64,000 nt of DNA from a bacterium (GTDB lineage: Archaea; Thermoplasmatota; E2; JACPAO01; JAHFTW01), in contig JAZJZE010000005.1 in the NCBI GenBank assembly GCA_040390065.1, positions 277,170 to 341,169 on the forward strand, given 5' to 3'. This document shows, piece by piece, positions 18,483 through 36,567 of this stretch. The position numbers and the translations under genes were made by a program. Under the pieces are notes generated by a model. It made no database searches. It was not told where the DNA came from and saw only the letters and a list, made by a program, of their open reading frames with translations. Each line of letters begins with the position of its first letter. Within the stretch, counting starts at the first letter, position 1.

Positions 18483-19601
18483 TCACGACGGGTGGTCCCG
18501 CCGCGCGGCGTCCCCGTAGATCTCCAGCAACTCCGCCGTGATGCGGTCCCAGTTGAACAAGTCGAGCCGGGCCGCACTCGCCTTCGACATCTTGCCGCGC
18601 AAGGCGACGTCGGCTGCGACCTTGCCGACCTCGCGCGCCCAATCCTTCGGGTCATGCCCGAGAAGCGGCCCTGCATCCCCGACGGCTTCGGGGATGCCGC
18701 CGACGTCGGAGCAGACGAGCGGTGCACCGGCGGCCATCGCTTCGAGCAGGCTGAACGGGAACGACTCGAACCGGGCAGGATGGACGTAGACATCAGCGGC
18801 CTTCAGCAGCCGCACCTTCTCCTCTTCGCTGACCCAACCCGGGAACTTGACGCGGTGCGCGATCCCCAAACGTTGAGCCCGCTTCTTCCAAGCCTCGAGC
18901 ATCGGGCCGCGACCGACGAGGACGAGGTCGAAGGGCTCGGGGACGTCACGCCAGGCATCGATCAAGACGTCGAATCCCTTGAGGGCCACGAGGCGGCCCA
19001 CGGCGACGGCAAACGGATGCGGCAGGCTGGTCGCAGGCCGGCCTTCGATGCGCTTGATCTCGTCGAGTTCGACGGCGTTGTAGTTGAGGCGCAGCGGTTC
19101 GGCAGGAAAGCCATGTTGCACGAGGTCGCGGCGCACACGATCGCTGACGCAAACGACGCGGCGAGCGGCGCGCAGGGTCCGCATGTACATGCGGTCGTTG
19201 ACTTTGCTCGCCAAGCCAAGGATCCCTTTCCCTTCGCCGTAGGTGTTGTGATACGTGATGACGCCCGGACATGAAATCTCCCGGAACGCCTTGTTCCAAC
19301 TCGGCGACCAGCGGAAGTGGAAGTCCACGACGTCCGGAGCCAAGGCGTTGACGTACGCGGCGACTCCTTTCGTGCGTACCGGCGGCGGGTTGTAGAAGCG
19401 CTGCAGGGGGAAGGAGGACGGCAGCCGATGGACCGTGACGGCGCCTTCCTTTTCGATGCCGGCGGCCGTGCCTTCGAGCTGGGCGGTGACGATGTGCACG
19501 TCGTGGCCTTGCGCGGCCAGCCGCTGCGTGATGCTGCGGATGCGTCGCTCGATGCCGCCAGCGAAAGGAAAGTAGAAGGGGTTGAGGTGGACGATTCTCA
19601 T
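18483..19601 (-). CDS. Glycosyltransferase family 4
   Basis: FYFPFAGGIE, VGRLVALKGFD, ESFPFSLLEAMAAG (Ex7E), SDVGGIPE. Confidence 0.9.
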   Translation of the reverse strand: MRIVHLNPFYFPFAGGIERRIRSITQRLAAQGHDVHIVTAQLEGTAAGIEKEGAVTVHRLPSSFPLQRFYNPPPVRTKGVAAYVNALAPDVVDFHFRWSPSWNKAFREISCPGVITYHNTYGEGKGILGLASKVNDRMYMRTLRAARRVVCVSDRVRRDLVQHGFPAEPLRLNYNAVELDEIKRIEGRPATSLPHPFAVAVGRLVALKGFDVLIDAWRDVPEPFDLVLVGRGPMLEAWKKRAQRLGIAHRVKFPGWVSEEEKVRLLKAADVYVHPARFESFPFSLLEAMAAGAPLVCSDVGGIPEAVGDAGPLLGHDPKDWAREVGKVAADVALRGKMSKASAARLDLFNWDRITAELLEIYGDAARRDHPS

Positions 19602-19839
19602 GGCAACCCCCAAGCACTGTGTGGGGCCGGAGGCTTGGAAAGCCGCAGGCCCCACCCGTGTTGATCGACCTGACTGCAGGTCGCAGGGAAGTAGAAGGGG
19701 TTGAGGTGGACGATTCTCATGGCAACCCCCAAGCACTGTGTGGGGCCGGAGGCTTGGAAAGCCGCAGGCCCCACCCGTATTGATCGACCTGACTGCAGGT
19801 CGCAGGGAAGTAGAAGGGGTTGAGGTGGACGATGCGCAA
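19566..19839 (-). repeat. 119-bp tandem repeat (about 2.3 copies): 36 bp of GT4 5' end plus an 83-bp hairpin core
   Basis: Units begin near 19570, 19689 and 19808; one SNP between cores (19660 G / 19779 A); the third copy starts TTG CGC rather than ATG AGA. Confidence 0.95.
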
Positions 19840-19946
19840 GGCCAACGACCGGCCCACGGGCCGCTCCCTCAAGACCCTGGCGCCTCCCTGGGGCTACATA
19901 AGGGTTAGGCGGCACTCTCAAGCCTTTTGGAGGGGAATCCTGGGGC

Positions 19947-20241: not shown

Positions 20242-21483
20242 ATGCCCCTCCCCCCGCAGGCGCAGGGCCTGTGCGACCGATGCCTTGGTCGTCGGCTGAT
20301 TGGCGCGGCAGGGGAGGCACCGCAGCGGGCGTCCGGTGCGGCGGCCCGCACGGCCGAAGGCTGGACCGAGGTGGCCGAGGCCTCCTGCTCAGTATGCGAG
20401 GGAGCGTTTGCCGATGCGCCGCAATGGCTCGCCGCGGCGCTGGAAGCCTCCAAGCCGTACGAGTTCACCACGTTCCAGGCCGGGACCAAGTTTCCCGGAG
20501 GATGCGAGGCACTCGAGAAGGCGCTATCCGCGGCGATTGGGCAGGACAAGGTCGGCGAGACCATCCGCACGGAGGCCAATCGGCTGCTTGGCGCGGGATT
20601 CTCGGCCGCGACCGGTGCCAAGCCCGTCGCCGAAGGCGGCCGCCCGGACCTCGTCCTCACGGTCGACACGCGGTTCTGGTCTTGCGACGCGCAGGCCGGG
20701 CCCGTCTTCGTGCGTGGTCGGTACAACAAGCTCCGCCGCGACATCCCGCAGACGCATTGGCCGTGCCGGCGCTGCCAAGGAACGGGCTGCTGGCAATGCA
20801 ACGATACGGGTGTCACGTATGCCGAGTCGGTCGAGGACGCCATCGGTGATCCGACGCAGCCGCTGTTCGGTGCCACCTCCTTCAGTTTCCACGGCGCCGG
20901 CAGGGAGGACATCGATGCCCTGATGCTTGGCACCGGCCGACCTTTCATCCTCGAACTTGCGGACCCGAAGCGCCGCGCCGCCGACCTGCGTGAGATGGAG
21001 AACCGCATCAACGCCGAGACCGCGACGTCGGGCACGCGCGTGCAAGACCTGCGCATGGCGAACCGGGAGGAGGTCGTCGCCATCAAGGAAGGCGAGTACA
21101 ACAAGGAGTACCTGGCGCATTGCCTCGCCGAAGCGCCGTTGACCAGGACACAGGTCGAAGCACTCTGCCAGCAACTCACGGGCACGATTCTCGAGCAGCG
21201 CACCCCGGAACGCGTCAGCCACCGCCGCGCCGACCTCGTGCGCCGCCGCACGGTCCACCACGTCGTCGTCGAGGCCATGCCAGCGGACCCGGGCGTCCGC
21301 TTCTCGCTGCGCGTGCTTGCCGAGTCGGGCACGTACATCAAGGAAATGGTCAACGGCGACGAAGGCCGCACGGTGCCGTCGTTTTCGTCCCTGGCCGGGG
21401 TCCCCGTCAAGGTCGAGTTCCTAGACGTCATGGCGATCCTCGACGACGTGGCGCCCACCGGGGCTCCCGCTGACGCCGGCTAA
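20242..21483 (+). CDS. pus10: tRNA pseudouridine(54/55) synthase Pus10
   Basis: LCDRCLGRR, GRYNKLRRDIPQTHW, FHGAGREDID, QRTPERVSHRRADLVR, GTYIKE. Confidence 0.95.
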   Translation: MPLPPQAQGLCDRCLGRRLIGAAGEAPQRASGAAARTAEGWTEVAEASCSVCEGAFADAPQWLAAALEASKPYEFTTFQAGTKFPGGCEALEKALSAAIGQDKVGETIRTEANRLLGAGFSAATGAKPVAEGGRPDLVLTVDTRFWSCDAQAGPVFVRGRYNKLRRDIPQTHWPCRRCQGTGCWQCNDTGVTYAESVEDAIGDPTQPLFGATSFSFHGAGREDIDALMLGTGRPFILELADPKRRAADLREMENRINAETATSGTRVQDLRMANREEVVAIKEGEYNKEYLAHCLAEAPLTRTQVEALCQQLTGTILEQRTPERVSHRRADLVRRRTVHHVVVEAMPADPGVRFSLRVLAESGTYIKEMVNGDEGRTVPSFSSLAGVPVKVEFLDVMAILDDVAPTGAPADAG

Positions 21484-21487
21484 ACGG

Positions 21488-21494
21488 TTATAAA
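21488..21494 (+). promoter_or_regulatory. TATA box of the rpl21e operon
   Basis: TTATAAA immediately after the pus10 stop. Confidence 0.55.
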
Positions 21495-21566
21495 CCTGGA
21501 CCGGTCCCGTGAGTCCACCGAGTGCGGTGCCCTACATGGGGTGCCGTGCCAATCCAAGGTTTGACC

Positions 21567-21869
21567 ATGCCCGTCCGCTCCAAGGGACTCCGCAGCAAGA
21601 CCCGCCACCTGCTCCTCAAGGACCCGCGCAAGCGCGGTGTTCTGCCCCCCAACCGCGTCCTGCGGCAGTTCGCCATCGGCTCGACGGTCGCCGTCAAGAT
21701 GGAGCCGTCGCAGCACAGCGGCATGACGCACAAGCGCTTCCAGGGCCTGACCGGCACCGTGCGCGCCAAGCAAGGCGAAGCCTTCGTCATCGACGTCATG
21801 CACGGCAACATGGCCAAGACGCTCGTCGTTCGCGCCGAGCACCTCATCCCGATCCAGTCCCAGAAGTAA
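21567..21869 (+). CDS. rpl21e: 50S ribosomal protein L21e
   Basis: SKGLRSKTRHLLLK...HSGMTHKRFQGLTG...RAEHL. Confidence 0.95.
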   Translation: MPVRSKGLRSKTRHLLLKDPRKRGVLPPNRVLRQFAIGSTVAVKMEPSQHSGMTHKRFQGLTGTVRAKQGEAFVIDVMHGNMAKTLVVRAEHLIPIQSQK

Positions 21870-21882
21870 GGAGGCCCTCACC

Positions 21883-22248
21883 ATGTCCGACGCCGACGTC
21901 ATCCTTGAAGAGACCGTGGAGGAAGGCCGCCTCGTCAGCCTCGGCGAAGTGAAGGCGATGCTGGAGAAGGCCCAGGTCGACCGCGACGAACTGACTTACG
22001 AGCAGAAGATCGCCCTCGAGCACGCCAAGCGCTTCGCCCGCATCGACGGGAAGACCGCGAAGACGCTGGCGGCCGACGTCGGCAAGGCCCTGCCCGGCCT
22101 CGAGGAGAAGTTCTGCATCCGCGTCGCCGACCTTCTGCCGCAGCACCCCGACGACGTGCGCGCCATCCTGCAGAAGTCGCGCCACGACCTGACCGACGAC
22201 GAGATCGCCAAGATCATCGCCATCGTGGACCAGCACTACACTGCGTAA
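21883..22248 (+). CDS. rpoF: RNA polymerase subunit Rpo4 (RpoF)
   Basis: ELTYEQKIALEHAKRF, ADLLPQHPDDVRAIL; conserved position after rpl21e. Confidence 0.9.
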   Translation: MSDADVILEETVEEGRLVSLGEVKAMLEKAQVDRDELTYEQKIALEHAKRFARIDGKTAKTLAADVGKALPGLEEKFCIRVADLLPQHPDDVRAILQKSRHDLTDDEIAKIIAIVDQHYTA

Positions 22249-22265
22249 GCCCAGGAGGCCAACCC

Positions 22266-22853
22266 ATGGAAGACTACGTCCACATCCTTGACTACTTGCC
22301 CCAAGGCCGCCCCGACTCGCCGCCCAGCCGGCGCGAGCCGACGCTGCTTGGCCTCGGCGAGCAGCAGTTCACGCTCTTCGAGCTCGTGCCCAAGTCGGGC
22401 GCGCAGTTCACCATCGGCGACCGCGCCTACGTCGGCAAGGACGTCGACCAGCGCACCCTGGTCCAGAAGATCCGGGGCCGCATCCAATACCACGAGTTGA
22501 CACCTGCCGCGCACGGCGAGCTGCCGTACGTCATCGAGGACGTCGTCAAGACGGACCCGGCGCGCTTCCTGAAGTTCTTCAACGACGCGCCATCGATCTC
22601 CGTGCGCTACCACGCCCTGGAACTCCTGCCTGGCATCGGCAAGAAATCCGTCGAGCACCTCGTCACCGAGCGCAAGAAGCCCTTCGAGTCGTTCGAGGAC
22701 CTCGAGGCGCGCGGCAAGGTCGCCCATCCGATGAAGGTCGTGATTGGCCGCATCCTGCACGAACTGCAGGACCCCACTGAAAAGTATCACATCTTCGTGC
22801 GCCCTCCCGCTCAGGAGAGGGAAGAGTGGCGTGGTCCCCGCAGGGGACCGTAG
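22266..22853 (+). CDS. DUF655 family RNA-binding (S1/HhH) protein
   Basis: MEDYVHILDYLPQG, FFNDAPSISVRYHALELLPGIGKK, PFESFEDL; conserved synteny. Confidence 0.9.
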   Translation: MEDYVHILDYLPQGRPDSPPSRREPTLLGLGEQQFTLFELVPKSGAQFTIGDRAYVGKDVDQRTLVQKIRGRIQYHELTPAAHGELPYVIEDVVKTDPARFLKFFNDAPSISVRYHALELLPGIGKKSVEHLVTERKKPFESFEDLEARGKVAHPMKVVIGRILHELQDPTEKYHIFVRPPAQEREEWRGPRRGP

Positions 22854-23040
22854 CGCCCTCGACCCCGATTCCTCGGGAGGGCGCATCGGGCTACGGCCCG
22901 CAAGGGCCGTAGCGCAGGTCAGCCCTCCTGCTCAGGAGAGGGAAGAATGGCGCGGGCCGCGGCGCGGCCCGTAGCGCGCCCTCTGCGCGAATTGTCGGCG
23001 GACGCATCGGGCTACGACCCGCAGGAGACCGTAACGCCCG
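22801..23040. repeat. 121-bp duplication of the DUF655 3' end within a ~60-bp-period hairpin array (GTAG-REP/BIME-like)
   Basis: GCCCTCC.GCTCAGGAGAGGGAAGA at 22801 and 22922; CCGTA(G/A)CGC at 22848, 22907, 22969 and 23029; CGCATCGGGCTACG twice. Confidence 0.85.
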
Positions 23041-23145
23041 TGGGATAAAGGCCGAGCCGGGGGTCCGGTCGGTGTGAGTGTTGAGCCTTGCCGCACTTGG
23101 GCAAGCGGCCCCCGGACTCGACCATCCCGCCAGTGGGCCTCACGG

Positions 23146-23214
23146 TATTTCACTCGTATGGGCCGATTGTTGCAACGTCCAGGCGCTCTATTTCACCCAT
23201 GTGGGCCAATCGTT
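23146..23214. repeat. 26-bp direct repeat pair (period 43)
   Basis: TATTTCACTCGTATGGGCCGATTGTT (23146-23171) and TATTTCACCCATGTGGGCCAATCGTT (23189-23214). Confidence 0.7.
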
Positions 23215-23263
23215 TCGTGGCGGCGGGGGGCCGGTTGAAATCCCGGCAGGCGGTGGGCACGGC

Positions 23264-24067
23264 GTGGGCCAGCGGCTCGGCCAGCACTTCCTTCGCGACG
23301 ACCGCGTGCTGGAGGACATCGTCGCAGCAGCCCAACTCAAGCCGGGCCAGCGTATCCTCGAGATTGGGCCAGGCCCTGGCAACCTGACGGCCCGACTTGC
23401 TGCGGCGGCCGGATCAAGCGGCGAGGTCGTCGCCATCGAGGCCGACCGGGAACTCGCCACGGCCCTGGAAGGCAAGTGGCCCAACGTCCACGTCGTGGCG
23501 GGCGATGCCGTGCGCGAGGACCTTGCCGCGCTGGGCCGGTTCCACCGCATCGTCGCCAACTTGCCGTACCTCATCTCCGGACCGATCACGATTGCGTTTC
23601 TCGAGTTGCTGGCCAAGCCCGCCACGCGCTGGGACCTCGCCGTCCTCATGTATCAGCGGGAATTCGCCGAGCGCCTGCTTGCCCACCCGAGCTCGCACGA
23701 CTACGGCCGGCTGACGGTGCAGGCCGCGCGTTGGTGCCGCGTCACGCCAGTGCGGGACGTTGCGCCGGGTGCATTCAATCCGCCGCCGCGCGTCGACTCC
23801 ATGGTCGTCGCACTGCAGCCACACGCAACGCCGCCGTTTGCCGTCGACGACGAACGCGTCTGGCAAGCCGTGCTCGACGGCACGTTCCAGCGCCGCCGCA
23901 AGCAACTGCGCAACAGTCTGCCCGCCGCCGTCGGGGGAATCGGTATCCCGCAGGACCACACGCTTGCGACCCTCGACAATCTCGGTTGGACGACGCGTCG
24001 GCCGGAGAACCTGTCGCCGCGCGAATTCGCCGAACTGGGAAACGCCCTGGGACGTGCCGCGAGATGA
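23264..24067 (+). CDS. rsmA: 16S rRNA adenine dimethyltransferase KsgA/RsmA
   Basis: LGQHFL, LEIGPGPG, VANLPYLIS, FNPPPRVDS; GTG start 23 nt after TTGAAA. Confidence 0.95.
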   Translation: MGQRLGQHFLRDDRVLEDIVAAAQLKPGQRILEIGPGPGNLTARLAAAAGSSGEVVAIEADRELATALEGKWPNVHVVAGDAVREDLAALGRFHRIVANLPYLISGPITIAFLELLAKPATRWDLAVLMYQREFAERLLAHPSSHDYGRLTVQAARWCRVTPVRDVAPGAFNPPPRVDSMVVALQPHATPPFAVDDERVWQAVLDGTFQRRRKQLRNSLPAAVGGIGIPQDHTLATLDNLGWTTRRPENLSPREFAELGNALGRAAR

Positions 24068-24669
24068 ACTGGAAAGGACCGGACGGCCACGCCTACTTCG
24101 TGGCCACGCATCCCGACGTGTACGTGCCCAGCGACGACACGTTCCTTCTGGCGAAGGCCGTGGCCCAGGAAGTCGTGCCAGGCCAACGTTTTGTCGAGGT
24201 CGGCTGCGGCGCCGGCCTGGTCAGTCTCGTTGCGGCCCACGCCGGAGCGGCGGTCACTGCCACGGACCTGAATCCGCACGCCATCGCGACGGCGCGGCAC
24301 AACGCCCGCGAAAACCACCTCGGCATGGATGTCGTGCAGGCCGACCTGTTGGCCGGCCTGTCCGGGCCGTTCGACGTGGTGGCCTTCAATCCGCCGTACC
24401 TGCCGACGGCCCCCGACGAGGTCGTGCCCGGCCCGCTCAACCTGGCCTTCGACGGCGGCAAAGACGGAAACGGCACCGTGCTGCGCTTCGCCCAGCAGCT
24501 CAGCCGCCTCGCGCATCGCCCCCGCACGGTCCTCGTCGTGCACAGCTCCCTTTCAGATCCAGGCCCGCTTGCCGCGGCGATGGCTGCGCTCGGCTACACC
24601 TGCGACGTGGTGCTCGAGGAGAACCACTTCTTCGAACGGCTTGCCGTGCGGCGCTTCCGTCAGGGTTGA
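24064..24669 (+). CDS. HemK2/Mtq2-like N5-glutamine methyltransferase
   Basis: VYVPSDDTFLL, EVGCGAG, FNPPYLP, DGGKDG. Confidence 0.9.
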   Translation: MNWKGPDGHAYFVATHPDVYVPSDDTFLLAKAVAQEVVPGQRFVEVGCGAGLVSLVAAHAGAAVTATDLNPHAIATARHNARENHLGMDVVQADLLAGLSGPFDVVAFNPPYLPTAPDEVVPGPLNLAFDGGKDGNGTVLRFAQQLSRLAHRPRTVLVVHSSLSDPGPLAAAMAALGYTCDVVLEENHFFERLAVRRFRQG

Positions 24670-25808
24670 CGGCGCCGCGCGAGGACCACGAGGGCGACGG
24701 CGAGGACGTTGAGTGCGAATTCGATGCCGGGAGAGGCCTTGGAGGAACCGCCCGTGTCGCCTTCACGCGTGAAGCCGTTGTCGTCGGTCGTCGTGGCCGG
24801 CTGCGTCGTGTCGCCGCTGGGGCCGCCGCTTGGGCCCGTCGTCGGCGGCGGGGCCGTCTTGATGACGTCGATGGACACGTCCACCGTCTTGTTGGCGCCG
24901 GCCGTGCTCGTGACCTTGACCTTGAACGGCACGTGCGTGCCGCCCGTCGCGGTCGACGAGATCGTGACCTTGAGGACCGTCGGCGTCGAAGCGTCCTTGG
25001 CGATGTCACCAGTCAGCGGGTTGAATGCCGCCGTGTAGCCATTAGGAAGGCCCACGGTGGACATGGTGAACTTGGTCGCAGCGCCGAGATTCTTCACGGT
25101 CAGGTTGTAGAAGCCCGATTCGCCGGGCGGAGCCGACGCAGACGTCTTGGCAGCCACGAGGTCGAGCGCCTCGCCTCCGACGGCTTGGACGGCGCCCGGG
25201 ATCCCCGTTGCGGTGAGCGCCGACGTCGTGGCACCCGTCATGATGACGATGTTGTTGGCCGCGGCATTGGATGGCGGGTTCTCGGAGAAGACGATGATGC
25301 CAGTCGAGACGATTTGCCCGGACCTCACTTCGGTTCCGGCGGAGCCGACGACGGGGATGTCGACTTGCACTGAGCCGCCCGGGATACAGGTGGCCGGCGG
25401 CAGGTACAGGACGAACGGGTCGCCGGAGTTGGAGATCTCCGTCCCGTCGAGGTACACGTGGCCGTCGACCTCGATGGCCGCCCACGCAGCCGTGCAGCCG
25501 AGAAGGGCGTGGATGGTGATGTCGCCCGTGAACGTGAAGTCCTGGGTCGCCGTGTAGTCCCAGTAGTTGTAACACGAGTCGGCGCCATACGAGGCGGCCG
25601 CGGCAGCGGTCCCGGCCGGCGGCGCGGTCGTGGTTGCCTCGTAGTGGTTCTCGAAGACGGCCTCGGGGCAGGCCGCGTTCGCCGTGACCGTGCTCTTGAG
25701 CGTGCTACCGAAGTAGATCGCCCCCGCCGGCGCCTGCGCACCCGCGTGCGGGACGGAGACGGCCGCGAAGGCCAAAGCTAGAGCGAGGAGGAACCCACCT
25801 GTTCGCAT
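24660..25808 (-). CDS. Cell-surface protein paralog 1 (signal peptide, variable domain, Ig-like domain, SPG-TM-RRR anchor)
   Basis: YNLTVKNLG...YTAAFNPL...GGTHVPFKVKV...GANKT; KASPGIEF-TM-RRRQP. Confidence 0.85.
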   Translation of the reverse strand: MRTGGFLLALALAFAAVSVPHAGAQAPAGAIYFGSTLKSTVTANAACPEAVFENHYEATTTAPPAGTAAAAASYGADSCYNYWDYTATQDFTFTGDITIHALLGCTAAWAAIEVDGHVYLDGTEISNSGDPFVLYLPPATCIPGGSVQVDIPVVGSAGTEVRSGQIVSTGIIVFSENPPSNAAANNIVIMTGATTSALTATGIPGAVQAVGGEALDLVAAKTSASAPPGESGFYNLTVKNLGAATKFTMSTVGLPNGYTAAFNPLTGDIAKDASTPTVLKVTISSTATGGTHVPFKVKVTSTAGANKTVDVSIDVIKTAPPPTTGPSGGPSGDTTQPATTTDDNGFTREGDTGGSSKASPGIEFALNVLAVALVVLARRRQP

Positions 25809-25851
25809 GGCTGGGGACTGTACCCCGACCCACTTCAAGGTTGCGGCATCG

Positions 25852-27027
25852 TTAGGCGACGCGGCGACGCATGGCGACGACGAGCATGCCGACGGCCAGG
25901 ACGTTGAGGGCGAACTCGATGCCGGGCGACTTCTTGGCCGTGCCCGTTTCGCCTTCGCCGGTGAAGCCTTCATCGGTCGTCTCGCCGCCGGGGCCGGTTC
26001 CGCCCGGGCCGGAGGTGCCGCCGGGGCCGGTCGTGCCGGGGCCGCCCGGCGTCTTTAGGACGTCGACTGCGAGGTCGATCGTCTTGTTGGCGCCGGCAGT
26101 GCTCGTAACCTTCACTTTGAAGGGAACGTGGGTGCCGCCGGTGGCCGAAGCCGGGATGGTGACCTTCAGGACCGTCGTCGCCGTCGAGTTGGCTGCCAGG
26201 TCGGCCGAGAGCGGGTTGAACGCCGCGGTGTAGCCGGTCGGCAGGCCCGTCGTCGACATGGTGTACTTGGTGGCCGTGCCCAGGTTCTTGACCGTGAGGT
26301 TGTAGAACGCCGGGTTGCCCGCGGGGGCGGAGGCGGCGGACTTGGCGGACGACAAGCCCACGGCCTCCGTGCCGACCTTGTTGATGGCCTCGACGATGAA
26401 GGCCGGATTCGTCATGGCGGAGGCCGCAGCCGCGGTTCCGGTGCTGACGTAGACCGTGCCTTCGGGGGCGGGTGGGCTGCCGTTCGGGGGGCTTGCCGTC
26501 TCGAAGAAGCCGGAGAGGCCGACGCTGACGAGGTCGCCAGCCACGAGGGGCGTGGTGTCGGCGGGGTCAAGGTCGACGCCGCTTGCCGTCAGCGAACCCG
26601 GCGTGCAGACGATCTGGTCGAACGTGTCGACGCGGGCGCCGAGGGCAGCGCCGTTGAGGTAGAGTTGCCAGCGCAGCGTGGTCGTGAGACCGCCGGCAGC
26701 TGCGGGGACGTCGCAGCCGATGTAGACGTTGACATGGACGACGGAGTCAAGCGTCGAGTCGCCGGTCATGGTGAACTCGAAGTAGATGGAGCAGAAGCTG
26801 AAGCCCGGGTTGGGGGCGTCCAGGTAGGCCTTGCCCTCGGTGGTTCCCGTAGGCGCGATGAGCGTCGTGCCGTAGTGGTTCTCGACAGGGCAGATGCCGC
26901 CGGCCGCGGGCGTGTTGGTCGCTGTGAAGTACACGTTGCCGGTCGCCGCTTGGGCGGTCGTCGTCTGCGTTGCGGCGAGCACTCCGAATGCCAGGAGCGC
27001 GGCCAACAGGATACCACTGGTTCGCAT
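25852..27027 (-). CDS. Cell-surface protein paralog 2
   Basis: Same constant C-terminal half; KKSPGIEF-TM-RRRVA. Confidence 0.85.
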   Translation of the reverse strand: MRTSGILLAALLAFGVLAATQTTTAQAATGNVYFTATNTPAAGGICPVENHYGTTLIAPTGTTEGKAYLDAPNPGFSFCSIYFEFTMTGDSTLDSVVHVNVYIGCDVPAAAGGLTTTLRWQLYLNGAALGARVDTFDQIVCTPGSLTASGVDLDPADTTPLVAGDLVSVGLSGFFETASPPNGSPPAPEGTVYVSTGTAAAASAMTNPAFIVEAINKVGTEAVGLSSAKSAASAPAGNPAFYNLTVKNLGTATKYTMSTTGLPTGYTAAFNPLSADLAANSTATTVLKVTIPASATGGTHVPFKVKVTSTAGANKTIDLAVDVLKTPGGPGTTGPGGTSGPGGTGPGGETTDEGFTGEGETGTAKKSPGIEFALNVLAVGMLVVAMRRRVA

Positions 27028-27076
27028 GCGAAAGCAGGTAGGCTGAGGGTTCTTCAACGTTGCGGCAACCCACTCT

Positions 27077-28249
27077 CTACTGGCGGCGTCGCAGGCCCAC
27101 GACGAGCAGTCCGACGGCGAGGATGTTGCCTGCGAACTCGATGCCGGGCGAGGCCTTCGACGAGCCGGCCGGGTTCTGGCCTTCGCTGGTGAAGCCATCG
27201 CCGGGCGTGGTGCCCGGGTCGGGTGATCCGCCGGGGCCAGGGCCGCCGCCCGGAGGTGTGGGCGTCGGGTTGGTCGCGGCCTTGAGGACGTCGAGCGAAA
27301 CGTCGATCGTCTTGTTGGCGCCGGCGGTGCCGACGACGCTGACCTTGAAAGGAACGTGGGTTCCGCCGCTCGCCGATGACGGCACGGTCACCTTGAGTTG
27401 CGAGGCGGCCGTCGTGTTGCCGGCGAGATTGCCCGTCAGGGGGTTGAAAGCGGCGGTGTAGCCGGACGGCAGACCGCTCGTGGACAGCGTGAACTTGGTT
27501 GCCGTGCCCAGGTTCTTGATGGTGAGGTTGTACAAGGCGGAATTGCCGGGCAGGGCCGAAGCCGTGCTCTTCGCGATGCCAAGGTTGAGCGACTCGGTGC
27601 CCACCACGGCCGGGGCGCCCGGGATGCCCATCGCGGTCAAGCCCGAAACCGAGACTGCGTCACCCGTTGCGATGAACAGGTTGCCCTGCGGCGACTGCGA
27701 GGGTGGATTGGCTGCGCCATAGATGTCGACGTTGATGTTGACGAGGTCGCCAGTCGCCACCTTGACGGGTGTCGTGGGCGTGACCGTGGCGGTCAGCTTC
27801 GTGTAAGCAGTTCCGCCGGAGCAGTTGACCTGGTCGAGGCCCTGGCCCGAGAACTGCGCCTTGCCACCGACAGAGACCGTGAAGTCCCATGAAGGAACGT
27901 CGCCGAGGACCGGCAACGTCTGGCCGGCGGGGACAACGGCGGGTTCGTCGCAGCCCACGTACATGGTGAAGACGATGGCGCCGCTCATGGAGAAGTCCTC
28001 GCTCGCCGTGTAGTCGAAGTTCGCCGCGCAGTTCGAGGTGCCAGCCTGGAGGCCCCAGTACGCCTTGCCCGCCGCAGGGATGGTCGTCTGCGCGGAGTAG
28101 AACGGCCCGGCGCACGGCGCCGTGGCCTTGGTGGCGGAGAGGGTCTTGTCGAAGTACAGCGTGCCTTCGCCGGCCGCTTGGGCCACGGGCATCACGTTCA
28201 GGACCGCAAGGCCCGCCAGGAGTGCAATCAGGACAACGCCGACACGCAT
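27077..28249 (-). CDS. Cell-surface protein paralog 3
   Basis: Same constant C-terminal half; KASPGIEF-TM-RRRQ. Confidence 0.85.
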   Translation of the reverse strand: MRVGVVLIALLAGLAVLNVMPVAQAAGEGTLYFDKTLSATKATAPCAGPFYSAQTTIPAAGKAYWGLQAGTSNCAANFDYTASEDFSMSGAIVFTMYVGCDEPAVVPAGQTLPVLGDVPSWDFTVSVGGKAQFSGQGLDQVNCSGGTAYTKLTATVTPTTPVKVATGDLVNINVDIYGAANPPSQSPQGNLFIATGDAVSVSGLTAMGIPGAPAVVGTESLNLGIAKSTASALPGNSALYNLTIKNLGTATKFTLSTSGLPSGYTAAFNPLTGNLAGNTTAASQLKVTVPSSASGGTHVPFKVSVVGTAGANKTIDVSLDVLKAATNPTPTPPGGGPGPGGSPDPGTTPGDGFTSEGQNPAGSSKASPGIEFAGNILAVGLLVVGLRRRQ

Positions 28250-28310
28250 GAAGCCCAGGGGGGCGGGACCCATCTTCAAGACTATGGCTAAGTCGCCGAA
28301 ACTTGGGCGC

Positions 28311-29768
28311 CTACGCGCGCAATCCGACGAGGAGGCGGTGCTGCTGCACGACGGAGTCGACGGCGTGGGCGCCGGCGTTGACGCGGGCTTGGGCCTGGGC
28401 TTCCGTCATGCCGGGCCCCGTGATGCCGAGTCCGACCGGCTTCTCGACGTCGAATGCCAGGTCGGCAAGCTTCCGTGCCGTTTCGCGGGCGATGATGACG
28501 TCGTGCCCGGTCTCGCCCTGCACGACAGCTCCGACCACGACGAGGGCGTCGATGTCGTTGCGGCGCAGCAGGAGCTTAGCGGCGAGCGGCACGTCGAAGA
28601 CGCCGGGGACATGGTGGTGCGCCGCGATGGGCGCGCCGAGGATCTGGGCCCGCGCCTTAGCGGCTTCCGCCATGCGCGTCGTCGTGTCGAAATGGTAGTC
28701 GCTCTGCAGAATGGCGATGCGCGGGCTCGTTCCTCCGGGCTTGATGGGCGGGGCTCCGCTCGTGTGCGGCGTGCCAGACGTGCTGTGCTGAGCGTCAGCC
28801 GCGGCGTGCGTGGTCGGCGCGTGGCTGGGCGCTGCATGCGTCGGGGCCGGCGCGGCGCGGGGCACCTGCACGGCGGCAGGCGGGCGGGGGACGTACGGTG
28901 TGGCTGTCACAGGGACCTCGGCGGGGGCGGAAATGGTCGGAGCGGGACGGCTGGCGGCGGGTGGATGGGGCAACGGCGAGGCGCCGTGTACGGCGGGCGG
29001 AATCTCGGGGATGGGGGCGAAGATGTCCTCGCCTTCGGGATGCTCGACGACGGTCTTGCTCGGGCCGTACGCCGACGACTTGGACATGACGAGTTCGGGC
29101 GCCGAGGCGAGGTCCGCGGCTGCGTCGAGCACGGCTTGGTCCGCGACGGCGGCTTCGTGCGCGGCGACTTTTTCCTGCGCCGCTTTTTCCTCCGGGCTGC
29201 GCGGCGGCGGCGCCTCCTTCACCGGCATGACGCCGAAACGCTTGGGCGTCGCGACCTCGATGTCCGGCTCCTTCATCTTGGACAGGATCTCGTGCGCCTT
29301 CGGGGGCGGCGGCGGCTCGTGGCGGATTCCCTTGCCCGTCCGCGGATGCTCCTTCAGGTCCGGGCGCTGGTATTCCTCGAAGAGCGGATCTTCCGTGACC
29401 TTGACGGAGGGCGGCGGCGATGGCTTGTCGACGACGACCTTGGGATCGGCTGCGGCGACGGCAGGCATGCCGGGAAGCGGCGGCACCGGCCACGTCGACT
29501 TGGCCGTCGGCGCGCTGCGGGGGACCTCGGGGACGCCGATGCCCTTTGCCAAGTTGGCCTTGGTCAGCGGGGGCTGTGGGCCGCCGGCCGGGGGGAATTG
29601 GTAGCCCGCGGCGCGCAGGCCCTTGGACTTGGGCAGCGGGTTGCCGTGCTCGTCGAGCCGCGGCGGAGCCGTGTACTCGTCGAACTCGGCGGTGGTGTCC
29701 GTGATGGCGGGCTGGTCGCGCGGCGGCGGCTCCTTGCCGTGCGGCTCGGCGGCCTTGTCGTGTGCCAT
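28311..29768 (-). CDS. ribH: 6,7-dimethyl-8-ribityllumazine synthase with long Pro-rich N-terminal extension
   Basis: C-terminal ~140 aa: VPGVFDVPLAAK, GAVVQGETGHD, KPVGLGITGPGM; the frame is open from ATG 29768, with TTCAAG 25 nt upstream. Confidence 0.85.
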   Translation of the reverse strand: MAHDKAAEPHGKEPPPRDQPAITDTTAEFDEYTAPPRLDEHGNPLPKSKGLRAAGYQFPPAGGPQPPLTKANLAKGIGVPEVPRSAPTAKSTWPVPPLPGMPAVAAADPKVVVDKPSPPPSVKVTEDPLFEEYQRPDLKEHPRTGKGIRHEPPPPPKAHEILSKMKEPDIEVATPKRFGVMPVKEAPPPRSPEEKAAQEKVAAHEAAVADQAVLDAAADLASAPELVMSKSSAYGPSKTVVEHPEGEDIFAPIPEIPPAVHGASPLPHPPAASRPAPTISAPAEVPVTATPYVPRPPAAVQVPRAAPAPTHAAPSHAPTTHAAADAQHSTSGTPHTSGAPPIKPGGTSPRIAILQSDYHFDTTTRMAEAAKARAQILGAPIAAHHHVPGVFDVPLAAKLLLRRNDIDALVVVGAVVQGETGHDVIIARETARKLADLAFDVEKPVGLGITGPGMTEAQAQARVNAGAHAVDSVVQQHRLLVGLRA

Positions 29769-29847
29769 CCCAACACTCGCCACGACGTCATCCCTTGAAG
29801 CCTTTCTGTTGGGCCGCCCGCATCGCGGCAAGACCGTTTCACCCACC

Positions 29848-29884
29848 CCATACAAACATGTTTATCGTGTAAAGAACTGTATGG
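29848..29884 (+). promoter_or_regulatory. Candidate operator/promoter of the putative toxin-antitoxin pair
   Basis: CCATACA...TGTATGG inverted repeat with the internal perfect palindrome AAACATGTTT in an AT-rich patch. Confidence 0.45.
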
Positions 29885-29888
29885 CTTC

Positions 29889-30155
29889 ATGCAGATGCAG
29901 AGAGTTGATGTCAACGTCGGGACGCTGCACAACGTCGAGGAGGTCCTGCGGGCAGCCTCCGTTCCTGTCAGTCGGTACTTCATCCTGGAGCGACTGAAGG
30001 AAGCGGGTCGCGCCACAAACCAGCCCCGGCTGAACGTGGCCATCGCCTACCTCTGCAGTCACGAACTTGCCATCGAAGGTGAACGCGGCATCCAGTGGAC
30101 CCAATCCGGCTCGGCAGCGCTGCGGCGCGCGGCGGCGGCCGGCCGGCGGGTGTGA
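29889..30155 (+). CDS. Small winged-helix-like protein, putative antitoxin
   Basis: 88 aa helix-helix-helix-hairpin pattern, directly upstream of a RelE-like ORF. Confidence 0.55.
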   Translation: MQMQRVDVNVGTLHNVEEVLRAASVPVSRYFILERLKEAGRATNQPRLNVAIAYLCSHELAIEGERGIQWTQSGSAALRRAAAAGRRV

Positions 30156-30156
30156 C

Positions 30157-30501
30157 CTGGCCAGTTTCAGGGCCAGCGAGGTCGTCATCCACCCCGACCT
30201 CGACGCGGCCTTCCGGCGCATTGAAGCCGAAGCCGCCGCCGGGCGGCAACCGTCGGCCGCCATCTGGAAATCGCTCCTGACGGCCTTCCAGCGCGCCAAG
30301 ACGAGCGCACAGTTTGCCGACCCGATTCCACCGCGCCGGATTCCTGCGCATGTTCGGCGCTACGGGCTTGCCAACCTGTACTGCGTCGACTTGGCGGACT
30401 TCCATCGCGGGTTCTACACCCTCGAAGGCCGACGCGTCATCTTCCTCGATGTCGTCGACCACCGGCAGTACGACGAATGGTTCCCCAACAAGGGCCGCTG
30501 A
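30157..30501 (+). CDS. RelE/ParE-like protein, putative toxin
   Basis: NLYCVDLADFHRGFYTL...VIFLDVVDHRQYDEWF; no in-frame ATG/GTG near the 5' end, so CTG at 30157 is assumed. Confidence 0.55.
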   Translation: MASFRASEVVIHPDLDAAFRRIEAEAAAGRQPSAAIWKSLLTAFQRAKTSAQFADPIPPRRIPAHVRRYGLANLYCVDLADFHRGFYTLEGRRVIFLDVVDHRQYDEWFPNKGR

Positions 30502-30502
30502 T

Positions 30503-31099
30503 TCAGCGCGACGCGGGCCGTAGGTGCCCGGTCTCGCGGCGCGCCGGGTCTGCGGAGCCGACATCGGAGAATCCTTGGCGCTGGCCGGTGCCGGCGCGGG
30601 CGACGAGCTCCTCGGGCTTCTCCAGGATCCAGTGCGCATTCACGGCGTGCTCGGCGACGCGGTTCTGCACGATGCGCAAAAGCTCGGCGTCGTCGCGGGC
30701 CTCGTCCATGTGGACGAAGACCTCGAGGATGTGCGTCGAGGTGAGCAGCTGGGCCTGCCCGACGGCGAGGCTCGACTCGTGGGCGCACTGCTTGTCGATG
30801 GGCTCCGGGCCGACCATGCCGCAGGCGAGCATGATGTTGCAGCCGCCCTCGATCATCTGCTTGGCGGCGACCGCGAGGTCCTTGAAACCCGGAACGGTGC
30901 GGCGCAGGATGCGGTTGTCGGCGATGCCGAGGCCCTGCAACGTACGCACCGCGATGTCGCCCATGTTGACGGTCGCGAACGTCGTGTCGACGATGCCGTA
31001 GCGCGGGCCCGTCGTCCCCATCGGGCGCGGCTGGGCCTTGTGGACCATGACCTTGGGGGGCGGACGGCTGCCGTCCTCGGGGCGCCAGATGAGGCTCAT
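30503..31099 (-). CDS. ribC: Archaeal riboflavin synthase
   Basis: GIVDTTFATVNMG, TVPGFKDL, HILEVFVHMDEA, AGTGQRQGF. Confidence 0.92.
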   Translation of the reverse strand: MSLIWRPEDGSRPPPKVMVHKAQPRPMGTTGPRYGIVDTTFATVNMGDIAVRTLQGLGIADNRILRRTVPGFKDLAVAAKQMIEGGCNIMLACGMVGPEPIDKQCAHESSLAVGQAQLLTSTHILEVFVHMDEARDDAELLRIVQNRVAEHAVNAHWILEKPEELVARAGTGQRQGFSDVGSADPARRETGHLRPASR

Positions 31100-31224
31100 C
31101 GGGGATTGGACGGCGGCTGGGGAATGTAAAGGGTGAGGTTGGCGCCTGCGGCTGGAGGCGGCCGCGTATTGCGCCACGAGGACGGAATCGTAGCTTCTTT
31201 GCGGGCAGCGGACGTCGGGTCCAT

Positions 31225-31755
31225 GTGACGCTGCTAGCACAAGTCGGCGCGCCCGCCGGACAAGCCAACGTCGAATGGGTTGGGTGGATTATCGTTGCCG
31301 CCCTCGTCATGACGCTTCTTTGGCCCTGGTTCATCCTGGCTGCCCTGAACCGAATGAGCCGCGCCCAAGAGAGATTGGCAAGGGGCTTGACAAATGAGCC
31401 AGGGCGCCCGAGCCAGGCAGAAAGCATGGCGAGGATGGCACACGCGCTGGCGCGGCTGGCCGATGCCGAAGACCGGAAGGAGACGGCATTGGCCCGGCTG
31501 GCAGCTGCGCACGAGGCCCTGGCCCCCGCCCCCCGCGGAGAAAAGAGAAAAGGACCGGAAGCGGTGGCCGCAGTCCCCACCGTCCAACCAGACGCTGCAG
31601 CGAGCGCCGACCTGACGGACCCCCCGCTCCGACCGCGCCCGCAGTACGAGACTCCGAGCCACAAGCGCGCGATTGTAAGTTCAACGGATTGGGCCATCAT
31701 AGCGGGCATCTCGGGCGCTGCCTTGCTGTTCCTTTGGTGGCTTTTCCGCCACTAA
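31225..31755 (+). CDS. Hypothetical membrane protein (N- and C-terminal TM)
   Basis: Two hydrophobic helices flank a coiled-coil/Pro region; antisense to the rib cluster. Confidence 0.5.
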   Translation: MTLLAQVGAPAGQANVEWVGWIIVAALVMTLLWPWFILAALNRMSRAQERLARGLTNEPGRPSQAESMARMAHALARLADAEDRKETALARLAAAHEALAPAPRGEKRKGPEAVAAVPTVQPDAAASADLTDPPLRPRPQYETPSHKRAIVSSTDWAIIAGISGAALLFLWWLFRH

Positions 31756-31762
31756 TGGTCGG

Positions 31763-32311
31763 TTAGCCCGCGGCCTTCCCCCCGTACAGGGTCTGCTCCG
31801 CCGCCCTCTCCGCCACTTTCTCGATGATCTTGCGCGTGCCATCCAAGTCGCCCAAATAATGGGGAAGCCGAACCACCTTGCACTTCCATCCGCGCTTCTC
31901 GCACTCCGCCGCGACCGCCGCTTCGTCGTACTTCTGGTCGAAGCCGAGGGCGATGATGTCGGGCTTGAGCTCGACGACGATGCGGTAGTAGTCGCCGCGG
32001 TGGCCCAGCACGGCGCGGTCGACGGGCTTCAGGGCCTCGACCATGCGGCGGCGGTGCTCCTCCGACGTGATGGGCTTGTGCTTCTCCTTCGTCGCGGATT
32101 CGTCGCGTGCGATGACGACGACGAGTTCGTCGCCGAGTTTCTTGGCTTCCTCGAGCATGTGGAGGTGGCCGGGGTGCAGGAGGTCGAAGACGCCCGTCGT
32201 CATGACGCGAACGTGAGGGCGCAGGCCGCGTGGCGACGCGGGAGCCGATGTCGCGGCTACGCGGGGACTGCCGGACTCGGCGGGCTTGCGCGGGCTGCGT
32301 TGTGGTGCCAT
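31763..32311 (-). CDS. ribL: Archaeal FAD synthetase
   Basis: VRVMTTGVFDLLHPGH (HxGH), LKPVD, PDIIALGFDQ, GTRKII; start 32311 (overlapping ribB) or 32203. Confidence 0.85.
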   Translation of the reverse strand: MAPQRSPRKPAESGSPRVAATSAPASPRGLRPHVRVMTTGVFDLLHPGHLHMLEEAKKLGDELVVVIARDESATKEKHKPITSEEHRRRMVEALKPVDRAVLGHRGDYYRIVVELKPDIIALGFDQKYDEAAVAAECEKRGWKCKVVRLPHYLGDLDGTRKIIEKVAERAAEQTLYGGKAAG

Positions 32312-32994
32312 GCCGTGATGACGTCCTGGCCGGTGAGGAACACCAAGCCGTGTCGCTCCGCGTAGGCGCGCGCGTCCTTTTGAGACAGCGCCTTGCCCGT
32401 TGCGTCCAGCATCTCGCAGATTGTGGTCGACGGCACGAGGCTCGCCTGTCGAGCGAGCTCGATGGAGAGTTCCGTGTGGCCTTGGCGGGCTGCGAGTCCG
32501 CCGTCGGCGCCGTTCAGAAGGATGACGTGTCCCGGGGTGCGGAATTGTGCACCGAAGCGTTCGCGGGCCGTCGCGGGCCCGACGCGTTCGAGGTCGCCAA
32601 GGAACGCGGCCAATTCCTGGATGGTGAGGCTGCGGTCGCCGTCGGGGATGCCGGTGAACGTGCGCCGTGAATTGAGGGTGATGCCGAAGCTGGACTTCGA
32701 CGGGTCGTAGCGCAGGTCGTGCGCTTTCATCTCGGCGAGGACCGGGTGGCGAGCTGCTGCGTCGGCCAGAAGGTCGGCGAGAAAAGGCAGGCCCAGCTTG
32801 CGGTGGTGCTCCGGCGCGACCGTCGTGCACAGGAGGCCGCCGGCGTCTTGCCGGAGGCGTCGGATGGCGGCGGGAGTCGCGTGCTGTGAGGCGATGACCA
32901 GGTCGGTCTCGCCTTCCCGGGAGTCGGAGTCGAACAGGAGGACCGGGTCACCGCGGCGCAGGGCTGCCGTTGCGCGCTCGACGGGGGATTGCAC
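32257..32994 (-). CDS. ribB: 3,4-dihydroxy-2-butanone-4-phosphate synthase
   Basis: FDSDSREGETD, RTFTGIPDGDR, FRTPGHV, RQGHTELS, CEMLD. Confidence 0.92.
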   Translation of the reverse strand: MQSPVERATAALRRGDPVLLFDSDSREGETDLVIASQHATPAAIRRLRQDAGGLLCTTVAPEHHRKLGLPFLADLLADAAARHPVLAEMKAHDLRYDPSKSSFGITLNSRRTFTGIPDGDRSLTIQELAAFLGDLERVGPATARERFGAQFRTPGHVILLNGADGGLAARQGHTELSIELARQASLVPSTTICEMLDATGKALSQKDARAYAERHGLVFLTGQDVITAWHHNAARASPPSPAVPA

Positions 32995-33043
32995 GGGGGC
33001 CGCGAGCACGACCACGGATATCAAGAATGAGTTGCAAGCAGAA

Positions 33044-33087
33044 AATGAGTAGGTTAGCTTTCCAGGAGAGAAAAGCCAGCGAACTCA
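33044..33087 (-). terminator. Hairpin followed by a U-tract after rps17e
   Basis: Minus strand UGAGU..UGGCUUU-loop-AAAGCUA..ACUCA followed by UUUUC. Confidence 0.35.
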
Positions 33088-33122
33088 GAAAAGGGTTGGA
33101 AGAAGGGGTGGACGAAGACGGG

Positions 33123-33380
33123 TTACGCTGCGGCCGGGACGTCGTCGACGACGGGCTTCGTGCCCGATTCCTCGGCGGCCTCGACGGTGGCGGCTTCCCA
33201 GTTCTTGCGGTACGTGGTTACGTAGCCCGCGATGCGGTTGCGGAACACGGTGGTCTTGACGTCCGTCAGTTGGCCTACAACCTTCTTGTTGTGCTCGAAG
33301 TCATCGCTGAACTGGTCGTTGTACTTCTTGACCAGGTCGATCGCGACGCGCTTGATGTAGGTCTGACGGATGTTTCCCAC
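33123..33380 (-). CDS. rps17e: 30S ribosomal protein S17e
   Basis: GNIRQTYIKR...FSDDFEHNKK...RNRIAGYVT. Confidence 0.95.
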   Translation of the reverse strand: MGNIRQTYIKRVAIDLVKKYNDQFSDDFEHNKKVVGQLTDVKTTVFRNRIAGYVTTYRKNWEAATVEAAEESGTKPVVDDVPAAA

Positions 33381-33385
33381 GAATG

Positions 33386-34273: not shown

Positions 34274-34386
34274 AAGGAAAGTCTATGTCTGATGGACAGC
34301 ATAAAGGATGCGTGGCCACGCGGACAGTCGCTGTCGTGCGGGAAAGTGCCCTCCCCGCCCATTGCCCCCTGCGGGACCCGGCAGCC

Positions 34387-35477: not shown

Positions 35478-35479
35478 GT

Positions 35480-35968: not shown

Positions 35969-36039
35969 GCCCGGGCCTAACCTGGTTCGGCATAAATGCA
36001 AGTCGCAAGAGTCAAGCCGGTCGGGTTGGTCGTGCCGGC

Positions 36040-36429
36040 GTGGCGCTCGACTGGAAGGCCATCGTCCTCGTCGCCGCCGGCGCCATCGTCGGCGCCTTGC
36101 TGCGCTTCGGCGTCTCCGCTCTCGTGCCAAGCAAGACGTTCCCGTTTGCGACGTTTCCGTGGGCCACGCTGGCCGTCAATCTGGCCGGCGCCTTCGCGAT
36201 TGGTCTGCTCGTGCTTCCCTCCGGCGTCGACCACGACGTGAAGATGCTCGTTGTCGTCGGCTTCCTGGGAGCGTTCACCACGCTCAGCACGTATTCCGTC
36301 GAAACCGTCGACCTGTGGCGCACGTCTCACCGCGACCTCGCCGTGGCAAACATGCTGGCAAACGGCCTTGGCGGACCGCTCATGGCCGTCGCCGGATGGA
36401 AGGTCGCCGTCGCGTTCGGGGCTGCCTAG
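36040..36429 (+). CDS. crcB: Fluoride efflux channel CrcB/FluC
   Basis: GAIVGALLRF, FPWATLAVNLAG, GFLGAFTTLSTY. Confidence 0.9.
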   Translation: MALDWKAIVLVAAGAIVGALLRFGVSALVPSKTFPFATFPWATLAVNLAGAFAIGLLVLPSGVDHDVKMLVVVGFLGAFTTLSTYSVETVDLWRTSHRDLAVANMLANGLGGPLMAVAGWKVAVAFGAA

Positions 36430-36567
36430 AAACCGAACAGCCCCTTCTACCCCGCGACCTTCAAACGAAGGTCGATCACGTTGCGTCGTGGGGCCTCATT
36501 CCATGTCGGCCCCACATAGCCGTCCCCTGGGGGCCGCCTAGAAACCGAACAGCCCCTTCTGGCCCGC
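36418..36567 (+). mobile_element. 74-bp hairpin core flanked by a 38-bp duplication of the crcB/rfcL stop region; homologous to the 19.6-kb repeat
   Basis: GGGGC(T/C)GCCTAGAAACCGAACAGCCCCTTCT..CCCGC at 36418-36455 and 36530-36567; core GCGACCT..AGGTCGATCA..GTGGGGCC..GGCCCCACA.AG..TGGGGG. Mobility is inferred. Confidence 0.65.

Follow-up and report, generated by a model that had tools for sequence, protein, structure and literature searches.

A tandem, silently respelled gene end behind an archaeal DUF655 gene and its possible origin in inter-lineage allele replacement

In an uncultured archaeon of the Thermoplasmatota (metagenome-type assembly GCA_040390065.1 in 50 contigs, 2.68 Mb, 67% G+C, 89% complete; hereinafter G000), the 3′ end of a gene coding for a DUF655 protein is present twice. 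The gene belongs to a classical archaeal row, namely Pus10, ribosomal protein L21e, RNA polymerase subunit Rpb4/F, DUF655 and an rRNA adenine dimethylase, which lies in the 64,000-nucleotide stretch of contig JAZJZE010000005.1 (277,170–341,169, forward strand) analyzed here; this stretch is referred to as the window and all its positions are counted from its first base. The PF04919 domain accounts for residues 1–179 of the DUF655 protein, and the repeated tail (residues 180–195 and the stop) is outside this conserved domain. The locus is made up of two units, each comprising a gene end (T) and a spacer (E) of about 68 bases, in the order T1–E1–T2–E2 (Table 1). Repeat finders pair 22801–22856 with 22922–22977 (spacing 121, 84% identity) and, in a second block, 22876–22902 with 22997–23023 (89% identity), while Tandem Repeats Finder reports 22801–23023 as 1.8 copies with a period of 121 and 78% matches. 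T1 and T2 flank E1, yet T2 itself precedes a second homologous spacer, E2. Only hairpins are found between T1 and T2, the 68-base spacer being devoid of an open reading frame (ORF) and of new cargo such as a toxin/immunity pair or an endonuclease. A search across the genome recovered no other full-length copy of E1 (best other matches 16–21 bases), and no Rfam covariance model matched at the gathering score in the whole window or at E values up to 1 in 22700–23300.

Table 1. Features of the DUF655 locus and of two further duplications in the window (hairpin z-scores are against dinucleotide shuffles)
Feature	Positions	Strand	Evidence and remarks
DUF655 gene, 195 aa	22266..22853	+	ORF; Pfam PF04919, E 8.3e-57
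T1, last 16 codons + TAG, copy in use, alpha spelling	22803..22853	+	repeat block 22801-22856
7-bp hairpin inside T1 (GGTCCCC / GCA / GGGGACC)	22833..22849	+	-13.9 kcal/mol, z -2.06; 30-nt context -17.0, z -2.74
E1, 68-base spacer with two intact hairpins (22854-22883, 22890-22913)	22854..22921	+	folding
T2, second copy of last 16 codons + TAG, intact, 121 bases downstream, beta spelling	22924..22974	+	repeat block 22922-22977
Hairpin inside T2 (CGGGCCGC / GGC / GCGGCCCG; two outer pairs in the 30-nt fold)	22950..22974	+	-18.9 kcal/mol, z -1.89; 30-nt -21.2, z -1.49
E2, homologue of E1, its two hairpins degenerate	22975..23045	+	alignment, folding
rRNA adenine dimethylase (KsgA/Dim1 type), next gene	23264..24067	+	Pfam PF00398, E 3.3e-51
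GT4 start duplication, 2.3 units of 119 bases, each with the first 12 codons + dispersed hairpin element	19566..19842	-	CDS 18483-19601
crcB (+) / RFC large subunit (-) convergence, 38-base copies 36418-36455 and 36530-36567 (spacing 112)	36418..36567	.	copies flank a 74-base dispersed-element copy, 36456-36529

The T1–E1–T2 arrangement is real DNA and not an assembly join. The likely source run, taken as the one run holding all sampled words of the locus, is represented in the Logan contigs, which were built from the same reads by a different assembler with k=31. One of these contigs (16,316 bases, depth 14.8) covers 20500–36119 with a single other letter and no gap, and passes through the tandem at even depth. 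The spanning-read check suggested by an earlier reading of this DNA (the original prediction) is thereby answered at the level of contigs from the same reads rather than of the raw reads, and these contigs show no chimeric join of two strains' alleles, an outcome that would have spoken against that reading. None of the 14 listed joints in the source-run contigs skips the 121-base unit, rare variants being invisible in contigs. The Logan contigs break at the repeated element of the crcB/RFC copy, such that this duplication is not bridged independently, and three other runs (X2–X4) contain just short, diverged pieces of the region that are uninformative on the tandem.

T1 and T2 (51 bases each) differ at nine bases in eight codons, of which eight are third codon positions and the ninth, likewise silent, is the first base of an Arg codon, and specify the same 16 residues and TAG. 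The duplicated end with eight synonymous codon changes and an unchanged protein, as originally described, is thus confirmed. Single random changes in these copies are silent in about 25% of cases; none of 300,000 random sets of nine substitutions was entirely silent, starting from either copy, and if one copy alone had been free to drift the probability of nine silent changes would be about 2.9e-4. Both copies have hence evolved under coding constraint, with the downstream one resembling a working allele and not a decayed relic, which upholds the view that it is no dead duplicate. Each copy is a mosaic, near-identical to the other and lineage-specific in its first half but, in its second half, as diverged from it as different species are. 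E1 and E2 are identical at 51/65 aligned bases. The spacer of G007, a genome of the same genus, is identical to the G000 spacers at 46/60 (E1) and 47/65 bases, and orthologous DUF655 genes of the genus are 70–95% identical per 60-base window; the units have therefore diverged to the extent of orthologues from different species, although the changes in their coding part are all silent.

The first E1 hairpin folds at -16.9 kcal/mol (z -2.49) and the second, with a 10-bp stem and a GCAA loop, at -25.1 kcal/mol (z -4.96; 0/200 shuffles); by eye, the 3′ arm of the latter resembles the end of T1. The hairpins of E2 are degenerate (z -0.62 and -0.80), and unit 2, as judged from these alignments and folds, has decayed outside its coding part and not within it. 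The gene ends themselves also fold, and two base pairs are fully compensatory between the T1 and T2 hairpins. Thus, the covariation pointed out in the original prediction is real, but as a selected structure the hairpin appears weak. Folding 12 further DUF655 ends (10 orthologous in-use ends from relatives, the in-use end of G007 and its second copy) gave only two at z ≤ -1.9 and five, including that of the nearest relative G004, that are no better than shuffles. Moreover, the pairing register is not constant between alleles, and much of the palindrome arises because Gly-Pro-Arg codons have self-complementary first two bases. Perfect hairpins were also examined for a loop motif in common and for being in excess; those with stems of at least 8 bp number 330, as against 365 in a mononucleotide shuffle, and no loop dominates. 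The GCAA loop was accordingly dropped as a common hallmark.

The DUF655 gene is present in all 41 related genomes searched. Among 19 other loci read, only G007 has a second end, in a tandem with a period of 120 whose second copy is frameshifted by a one-base deletion and has an internal stop. The dimethylase gene of family-level relatives starts within a few bases of DUF655. A second copy was also absent from the seven closest of 80 loci on metagenome contigs, several of which end shortly after the gene. Within the genus, the last eight codons occur in two spellings, alpha and beta. G000 uses alpha and has beta behind it; G007 shows the reverse order, using beta and keeping an alpha-like relic behind it. 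Single ends are found in G012 (beta-like), in four metagenome contigs (alpha-like) and in G004, where the end consists exactly of the first 14 bases of T1 followed directly by the last 12 of T2. In 12 comparisons with the in-use ends of relatives, T2 is the closer copy in seven, corresponding to 7/8 genus genomes, and T1 is closer to G004 and the four metagenome contigs. A sliding-window comparison of the DUF655 gene with eight relatives showed no clear recombination breakpoint. By its spelling, T2 is a member of an allele class used by other lineages, and it may be the resident end.

These comparisons bear on what was first suggested for the locus, namely that the downstream copy is the displaced original or that the copies are exchanged by recombination. 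The G004 chimera, the swapped order in G007 and the half-identical mosaics favor the two in combination, with T2 as a possible native end; in the comparison with relatives' 3′ ends, which had been proposed as a check, T2 matches the in-use ends as well as T1 does. The additional idea that the in-use end was rewritten in place is not needed, T1 being a natural spelling that serves as the in-use end elsewhere.

The DUF655 tandem is one instance of a genome-wide pattern. A scan of G000 for direct repeats at offsets of 40–400 bases with at least 21/24 matches returned 329 pairs in 140 clusters, of which 68 are inside genes, 16 at protein stops, two at protein starts, 16 overlap tRNA genes (52 tRNA genes were found), 32 are otherwise intergenic and six flank N gaps. 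The last are unmerged scaffold overlaps (C2:102634, C9:314726, C43:26462, C1:249895, C50:8785 and C50:15455), i.e., scaffolding leftovers and not biology. Genes affected include those for SecY, a proteasome subunit, ThyX, an aminotransferase, cytochrome oxidase subunit II, GAPDH and the RFC large subunit, along with ribosomal protein S15 and DnaG primase, which were named from sequence alone. The anchors of the duplication are conserved sequences, as illustrated by the tRNA genes and by SecY, proteasome, RFC, S15 and DnaG. At the tRNA genes, several clusters (e.g., C9:116753, C1:345447 and C31:1-415, one of them at a contig end) consist of near-identical tandem units of 103–208 bases, each with a copy of the tRNA end. 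The duplicated segments range from about 19 to 91 bases.

Pooling the codon differences over 13 protein ends besides DUF655 gives 38 silent and 23 non-silent changes (P 8e-10 against an expectation of 25% silent and 3.6e-4 against 40%), a tabulation of the kind that the original prediction had called for. This count leaves aside two pairs of paralogues, a low-complexity repeat, a start that had been mis-called and blocks of fewer than nine codons, and includes the proteasome locus, which was added by hand. Many of the 23 non-silent differences are in the outermost codon, where homology stops, and the silent signal comes mostly from SecY (8 silent), the aminotransferase (7) and the proteasome (8), the other loci being near-identical. 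A candidate at C1:19027-19429 was left out of the counts; it represents the acidic C-terminal peptide of ribosomal stalk proteins of the P0/P1 type, i.e., paralogues with mostly silent differences.

At several of these loci the direction of displacement can be read more clearly. SecY ends are stacked in five species (G000, G001, G004, G006 and G007). In G007 there are four, all of which retain a stop in frame (TAG, TGA, TAA and TAG), and the most distal 30 bases of its stack are identical to the in-use end; the assembly breaks inside this stack (loci L034 and L041), and the number of units is uncertain. A Ser codon is AGC in some of these SecY copies and TCC in another, two codon families that are not interconvertible by silent steps. 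As at DUF655, the first halves of the SecY copies in G000 and G007 are identical and the second halves diverged. The last 14 codons of the in-use SecY copy of G000 are identical to those of G008 at 41/42 bases, against just 79.0% for the gene body, and the displaced copy is identical at 40/42 to G009, the species with the closest gene body (84.6%). Hence, at SecY the in-use end is in phylogenetic conflict with its gene body. The displaced aminotransferase copy is closer to the relatives than the in-use copy in 8/10 species and keeps their Lys where the in-use copy has Arg, and the displaced proteasome copy is equally close or closer in 10/11. The comparisons show the displaced copy at these loci, as far as spelling can tell, to carry the native version.

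Two further duplications in the window, at the start of the GT4 gene and at the convergent crcB and RFC genes, had been cited as parallel cases with synonymous differences. Both are present, but their differences are few and of little weight, and one on the crcB side is a nonsense change in the RFC reading frame. In G007 the RFC and crcB stops overlap in four bases with no insertion, constituting an empty site for the 38-base duplication of G000. The GT4 insertion recurs in G004 at the same codon; its relic start is spelled ancestrally as in G010 and G006, and the in-use copy is derived. The relic GT4 start with its hairpin element (19599-19839, minus strand; also locus L157 of G004) is an open frame ending in a TGA that overlaps the in-use start codon, as ATGA in G000 and TTGA in G004, and it is a silent Arg respelling of the in-use copy that creates this TGA. 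The overlap suggests a possible termination–reinitiation coupling from the old start.

Both duplications contain a dispersed hairpin element with 26 copies in the genome (19596-19684 and 36456-36529 in the window), which is also found in the ThyX and proteasome duplications. It has one sharply fixed end (TGATCGACCT, 4–8 bases, AGGTCG) and one ragged end, with long forms adding G-rich hairpins. Ten copies (and two more in tandem) lie between duplicated targets of 31–91 bases, with no short fixed-length target duplication, and 14 have no flanking duplication within 400 bases; a long target duplication as a built-in product of the element's insertion is rejected on the latter ground. A retroelement-like origin, considered on account of the fixed 3′ and ragged 5′ ends, was likewise given up, there being no RVT_1 match. 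The earlier suggestion of a shared mechanism is supported across the genome; GT4 and crcB in addition involve this dispersed element, which is distinct from the DUF655 spacer, the latter lacking another full-length copy. Words resembling CACAGATTTC make up a second repeat family, which is found behind genes in many species of the genus (loci L002, L008, L012, L046 and L051; C5:87218-87555 in G000) and also within the duplicated 3′ flank of the aminotransferase gene.

We propose, with confidence that we would place about midway between doubt and assurance, that the DUF655 end was doubled by an inter-lineage allele replacement that displaced the resident end, followed by exchange between the copies. 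Within the genus, natural alleles of the terminal 17 DUF655 codons and their hairpin-rich 3′ flank would have diverged from one another. Incoming DNA of a related lineage would pair with a conserved anchor, i.e., a gene end or tRNA gene (at DUF655, the conserved sequence just upstream), and its non-homologous hairpin-rich flank would be attached by illegitimate joining a few tens of bases back, in front of the resident unit. The resident end would thus be pushed downstream, with T1 and E1 now being read as the gene end and T2 and E2 lying 121 bases behind. T2 would still be intact because it, or its source, was until recently a working gene end. Later ordinary recombination between the copies may have homogenized the first halves, swapped the order of the copies and, upon loss of the spacer, produced chimeric single ends; the mosaics, the G004 end and the order in G007 would then follow from such exchange. 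We infer that homologous pairing on one side and illegitimate joining on the other would suffice, with no dedicated enzyme. Searches of the 89%-complete assembly found no match for a Y1 transposase (PF01797) or TnpB (PF07282), for which the controls matched in six and eight of 14 genomes, respectively, and none for a reverse transcriptase (RVT_1) or Cas1.

Several observations weigh against this proposal. No donor of the DUF655 end was found, the best match among relatives being 40/48 for T1 and 38/48 for T2, both in G004, and neither copy is near-identical to any sampled relative. Seven of the nine DUF655 differences are within the hairpin region, where Gly, Pro and Arg codons leave only silent sites variable in the paired stem, and at this one locus part of the silent pattern could therefore be due to hairpin constraint alone. 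A lineage-specific Glu codon is common to the first halves of both copies, which requires a crossover exactly there or later homogenization. At SecY the segments compared are 42 bases long and the match is the best of 10, and the sequence downstream of the imported-looking end is, by eye, unlike that downstream of SecY in G008, from which it follows that end and flank need not travel together. The relic GT4 starts of G000 and G004 differ at five sites, all silent or start-preserving, a pattern that fits separate acquisitions and continuing constraint on the relic alike. Finally, contigs cannot exclude rare alternative forms in the population.

Of the other explanations, the one that survives best, though we consider it unlikely, is a miniature integrative cassette, i.e., a gene-less hairpin module that carries a silently diverged target end as its attachment site and depends for insertion and stacking on a site-specific or homology-guided recombinase acting in trans, much as a tiny element integrated at a tRNA or icd end or a recombinase-less derivative thereof. 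Gene ends and the 16 tRNA-gene clusters would be apt targets, and the stacks resemble tandem accretion, as with the four SecY ends of G007 and the identity of the distal 30 bases to the in-use end. Further, the fixed end of the dispersed element abuts the displaced copy at GT4, RFC, ThyX and the proteasome, all four, and the genome has six tyrosine recombinase genes (Phage_integrase matches). However, none of these six is in the window, the nearest being about 32 kb before its first base on the same contig, and the other enzymes sought were not found in the 89%-complete assembly. Each of the dozens of distinct targets would require a specificity of its own, the DUF655 spacer is without a further full-length copy, 14/26 copies of the dispersed element lack a flanking duplication and the duplicated lengths vary between about 19 and 91 bases.

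A tandem duplication that arose locally, through slippage or template switching at hairpins, and then diverged in place strikes us as improbable. It would account for the silent pattern by supposing that the varying sites are the only unpaired or mismatched positions of the Gly-Pro-Arg palindrome, driven to perfect pairing in each copy. Young near-identical tandem units do exist (98% at GT4; 97–100% at three tRNA genes), the 7/9 differences in the hairpin region include two pairs that are complementary alternatives, and the 3′ arm of the second E1 hairpin looks, by eye, to be derived from the end of T1. Against this, the eight silent SecY differences and the 7–8 at the aminotransferase and proteasome ends are outside any hairpin, the displaced SecY copy matches another species at 40/42 bases, unit 2 has decayed in its non-coding and not in its coding part, and the hairpin is missing in G004 and four other ends.

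We regard with still greater doubt the possibility that both copies are kept functional, either with loss and regain of the spacer via the identical first halves cycling each end into use and so keeping all of them readable, or with T2 and E2 having a role of their own in RNA 3′-end formation ahead of the dimethylase gene. The mosaics with identical first halves, at DUF655 and at SecY in G000 and G007, would accord with such cycling, as would the chimeric end of G004, the swapped order in G007 and the in-frame stops kept by each stacked SecY copy. Yet no alternative joined form is seen among the source-run contigs (contigs drop rare variants), the second DUF655 copy of G007 carries a frameshift and an internal stop, and frequent exchange should homogenize the second halves too. 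The least credible explanation, to the point that we set it aside, is that the assembler joined the alleles of two co-occurring strains in series: the assembly is of metagenome type, six other duplicated ends flank N gaps and minor related contigs occur in the source run, but the k=31 contig spans the locus, the spacings differ between loci (112, 119, 121 and 225) and hence do not track a k-mer size, and comparable stacks are present in independent assemblies of sister species.

Several known systems share parts of this organization. Orphan C-terminal modules displaced at rhs and CDI toxin loci, and homology-facilitated illegitimate recombination in transformable bacteria, involve one crossover within a conserved sequence upstream and a second junction without homology, with old ends piling up downstream; at the toxin loci, toxin/immunity cargo is exchanged under diversifying selection. 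Common to these and to the proposed allele replacement is one-sided joining with displaced ends; unlike them, the DUF655 protein is unchanged and no cargo is involved. REP and REPIN elements with their RAYT transposases and bacterial miniature inverted-repeat transposable elements are small GC-rich hairpin repeats behind genes, a position shared by the hairpins described here, and the spacers at GT4 and crcB are members of the 26-copy dispersed family. Unlike in those systems, no Y1/RAYT gene was found in the assembly, target duplications are not short and of one fixed length, and dispersal is not a feature of the DUF655 spacer. The distal repeats (rtT) of tyrT in E. coli have units that contain a copy of the 3′ end of the tRNA gene, and the palindromic MJRE elements of Methanocaldococcus jannaschii are tolerated at or in coding ends.

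Closest in form are two cases from the literature. In E. coli, the end of the icd gene is present twice on account of e14 (and phage 21), the C-terminal pseudogene icdC differing mainly by silent changes, and recombination between the copies gives a chimeric working gene (PMC13626634). The likeness to DUF655 is that gene-end copies flank inserted DNA and that the in-use and displaced copies differ silently (9/9 at DUF655); the difference is that a 15-kb prophage with its own integrase separates the copies there, as against a 68-base gene-less hairpin spacer here, with dozens of loci involved. In fungal mitochondria (atp6, atp9, cox2 and nad3 of Glomus; atp6 of Allomyces), mobile endonuclease ORFs replace C-termini such that the foreign part is read in frame, and the native part stays downstream and matches the sister species, which the inserted part does not (PMC3630166). 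The logic is that of the SecY end test in G000; a homing endonuclease gene explains the mobility there, and the inserts described here contain neither an endonuclease nor any other ORF. A search of the literature returned no account, for archaea, of stacked hairpins that lack genes and accompany gene ends with a silent respelling, though one may still exist. What sets the present case apart is the absence of cargo and of an enzyme gene between the copies, the unaltered protein and the frequency of the scar at the housekeeping and tRNA genes of one archaeal genus.

Should allele replacement be the right reading, the scars would record, at base resolution, the exchange of DNA between species of an uncultured archaeal genus of soil and watershed, displaying both the crossover entry in a conserved gene or tRNA and the non-homologous join of the foreign flank. 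They would also warn annotators and population geneticists that one recombination event can leave a whole run of silent differences at a gene end, and that the native end may be a pseudo-end found downstream. Further, the stacks could be mined across metagenomes for inter-lineage recombination and for whether hairpin-rich 3′ flanks are passengers or helpers. If the cassette view applied instead, archaea of this genus might use an undescribed, possibly enzyme-driven means of installing gene-less hairpin cassettes at essential-gene and tRNA ends, each with a silently respelled end, although we hold this to be unlikely. The stacked ends would then stay readable because recombination cycles them into use, and the cassettes would be portable 3′-end modules (with translation restart at GT4) and markers of gene flow between species.

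Elsewhere in the window, ARAGORN delimits tRNA-Ile (9120-9211) and tRNA-Asp (32416-32511) at 92 and 96 bases, lengths that suggest introns.

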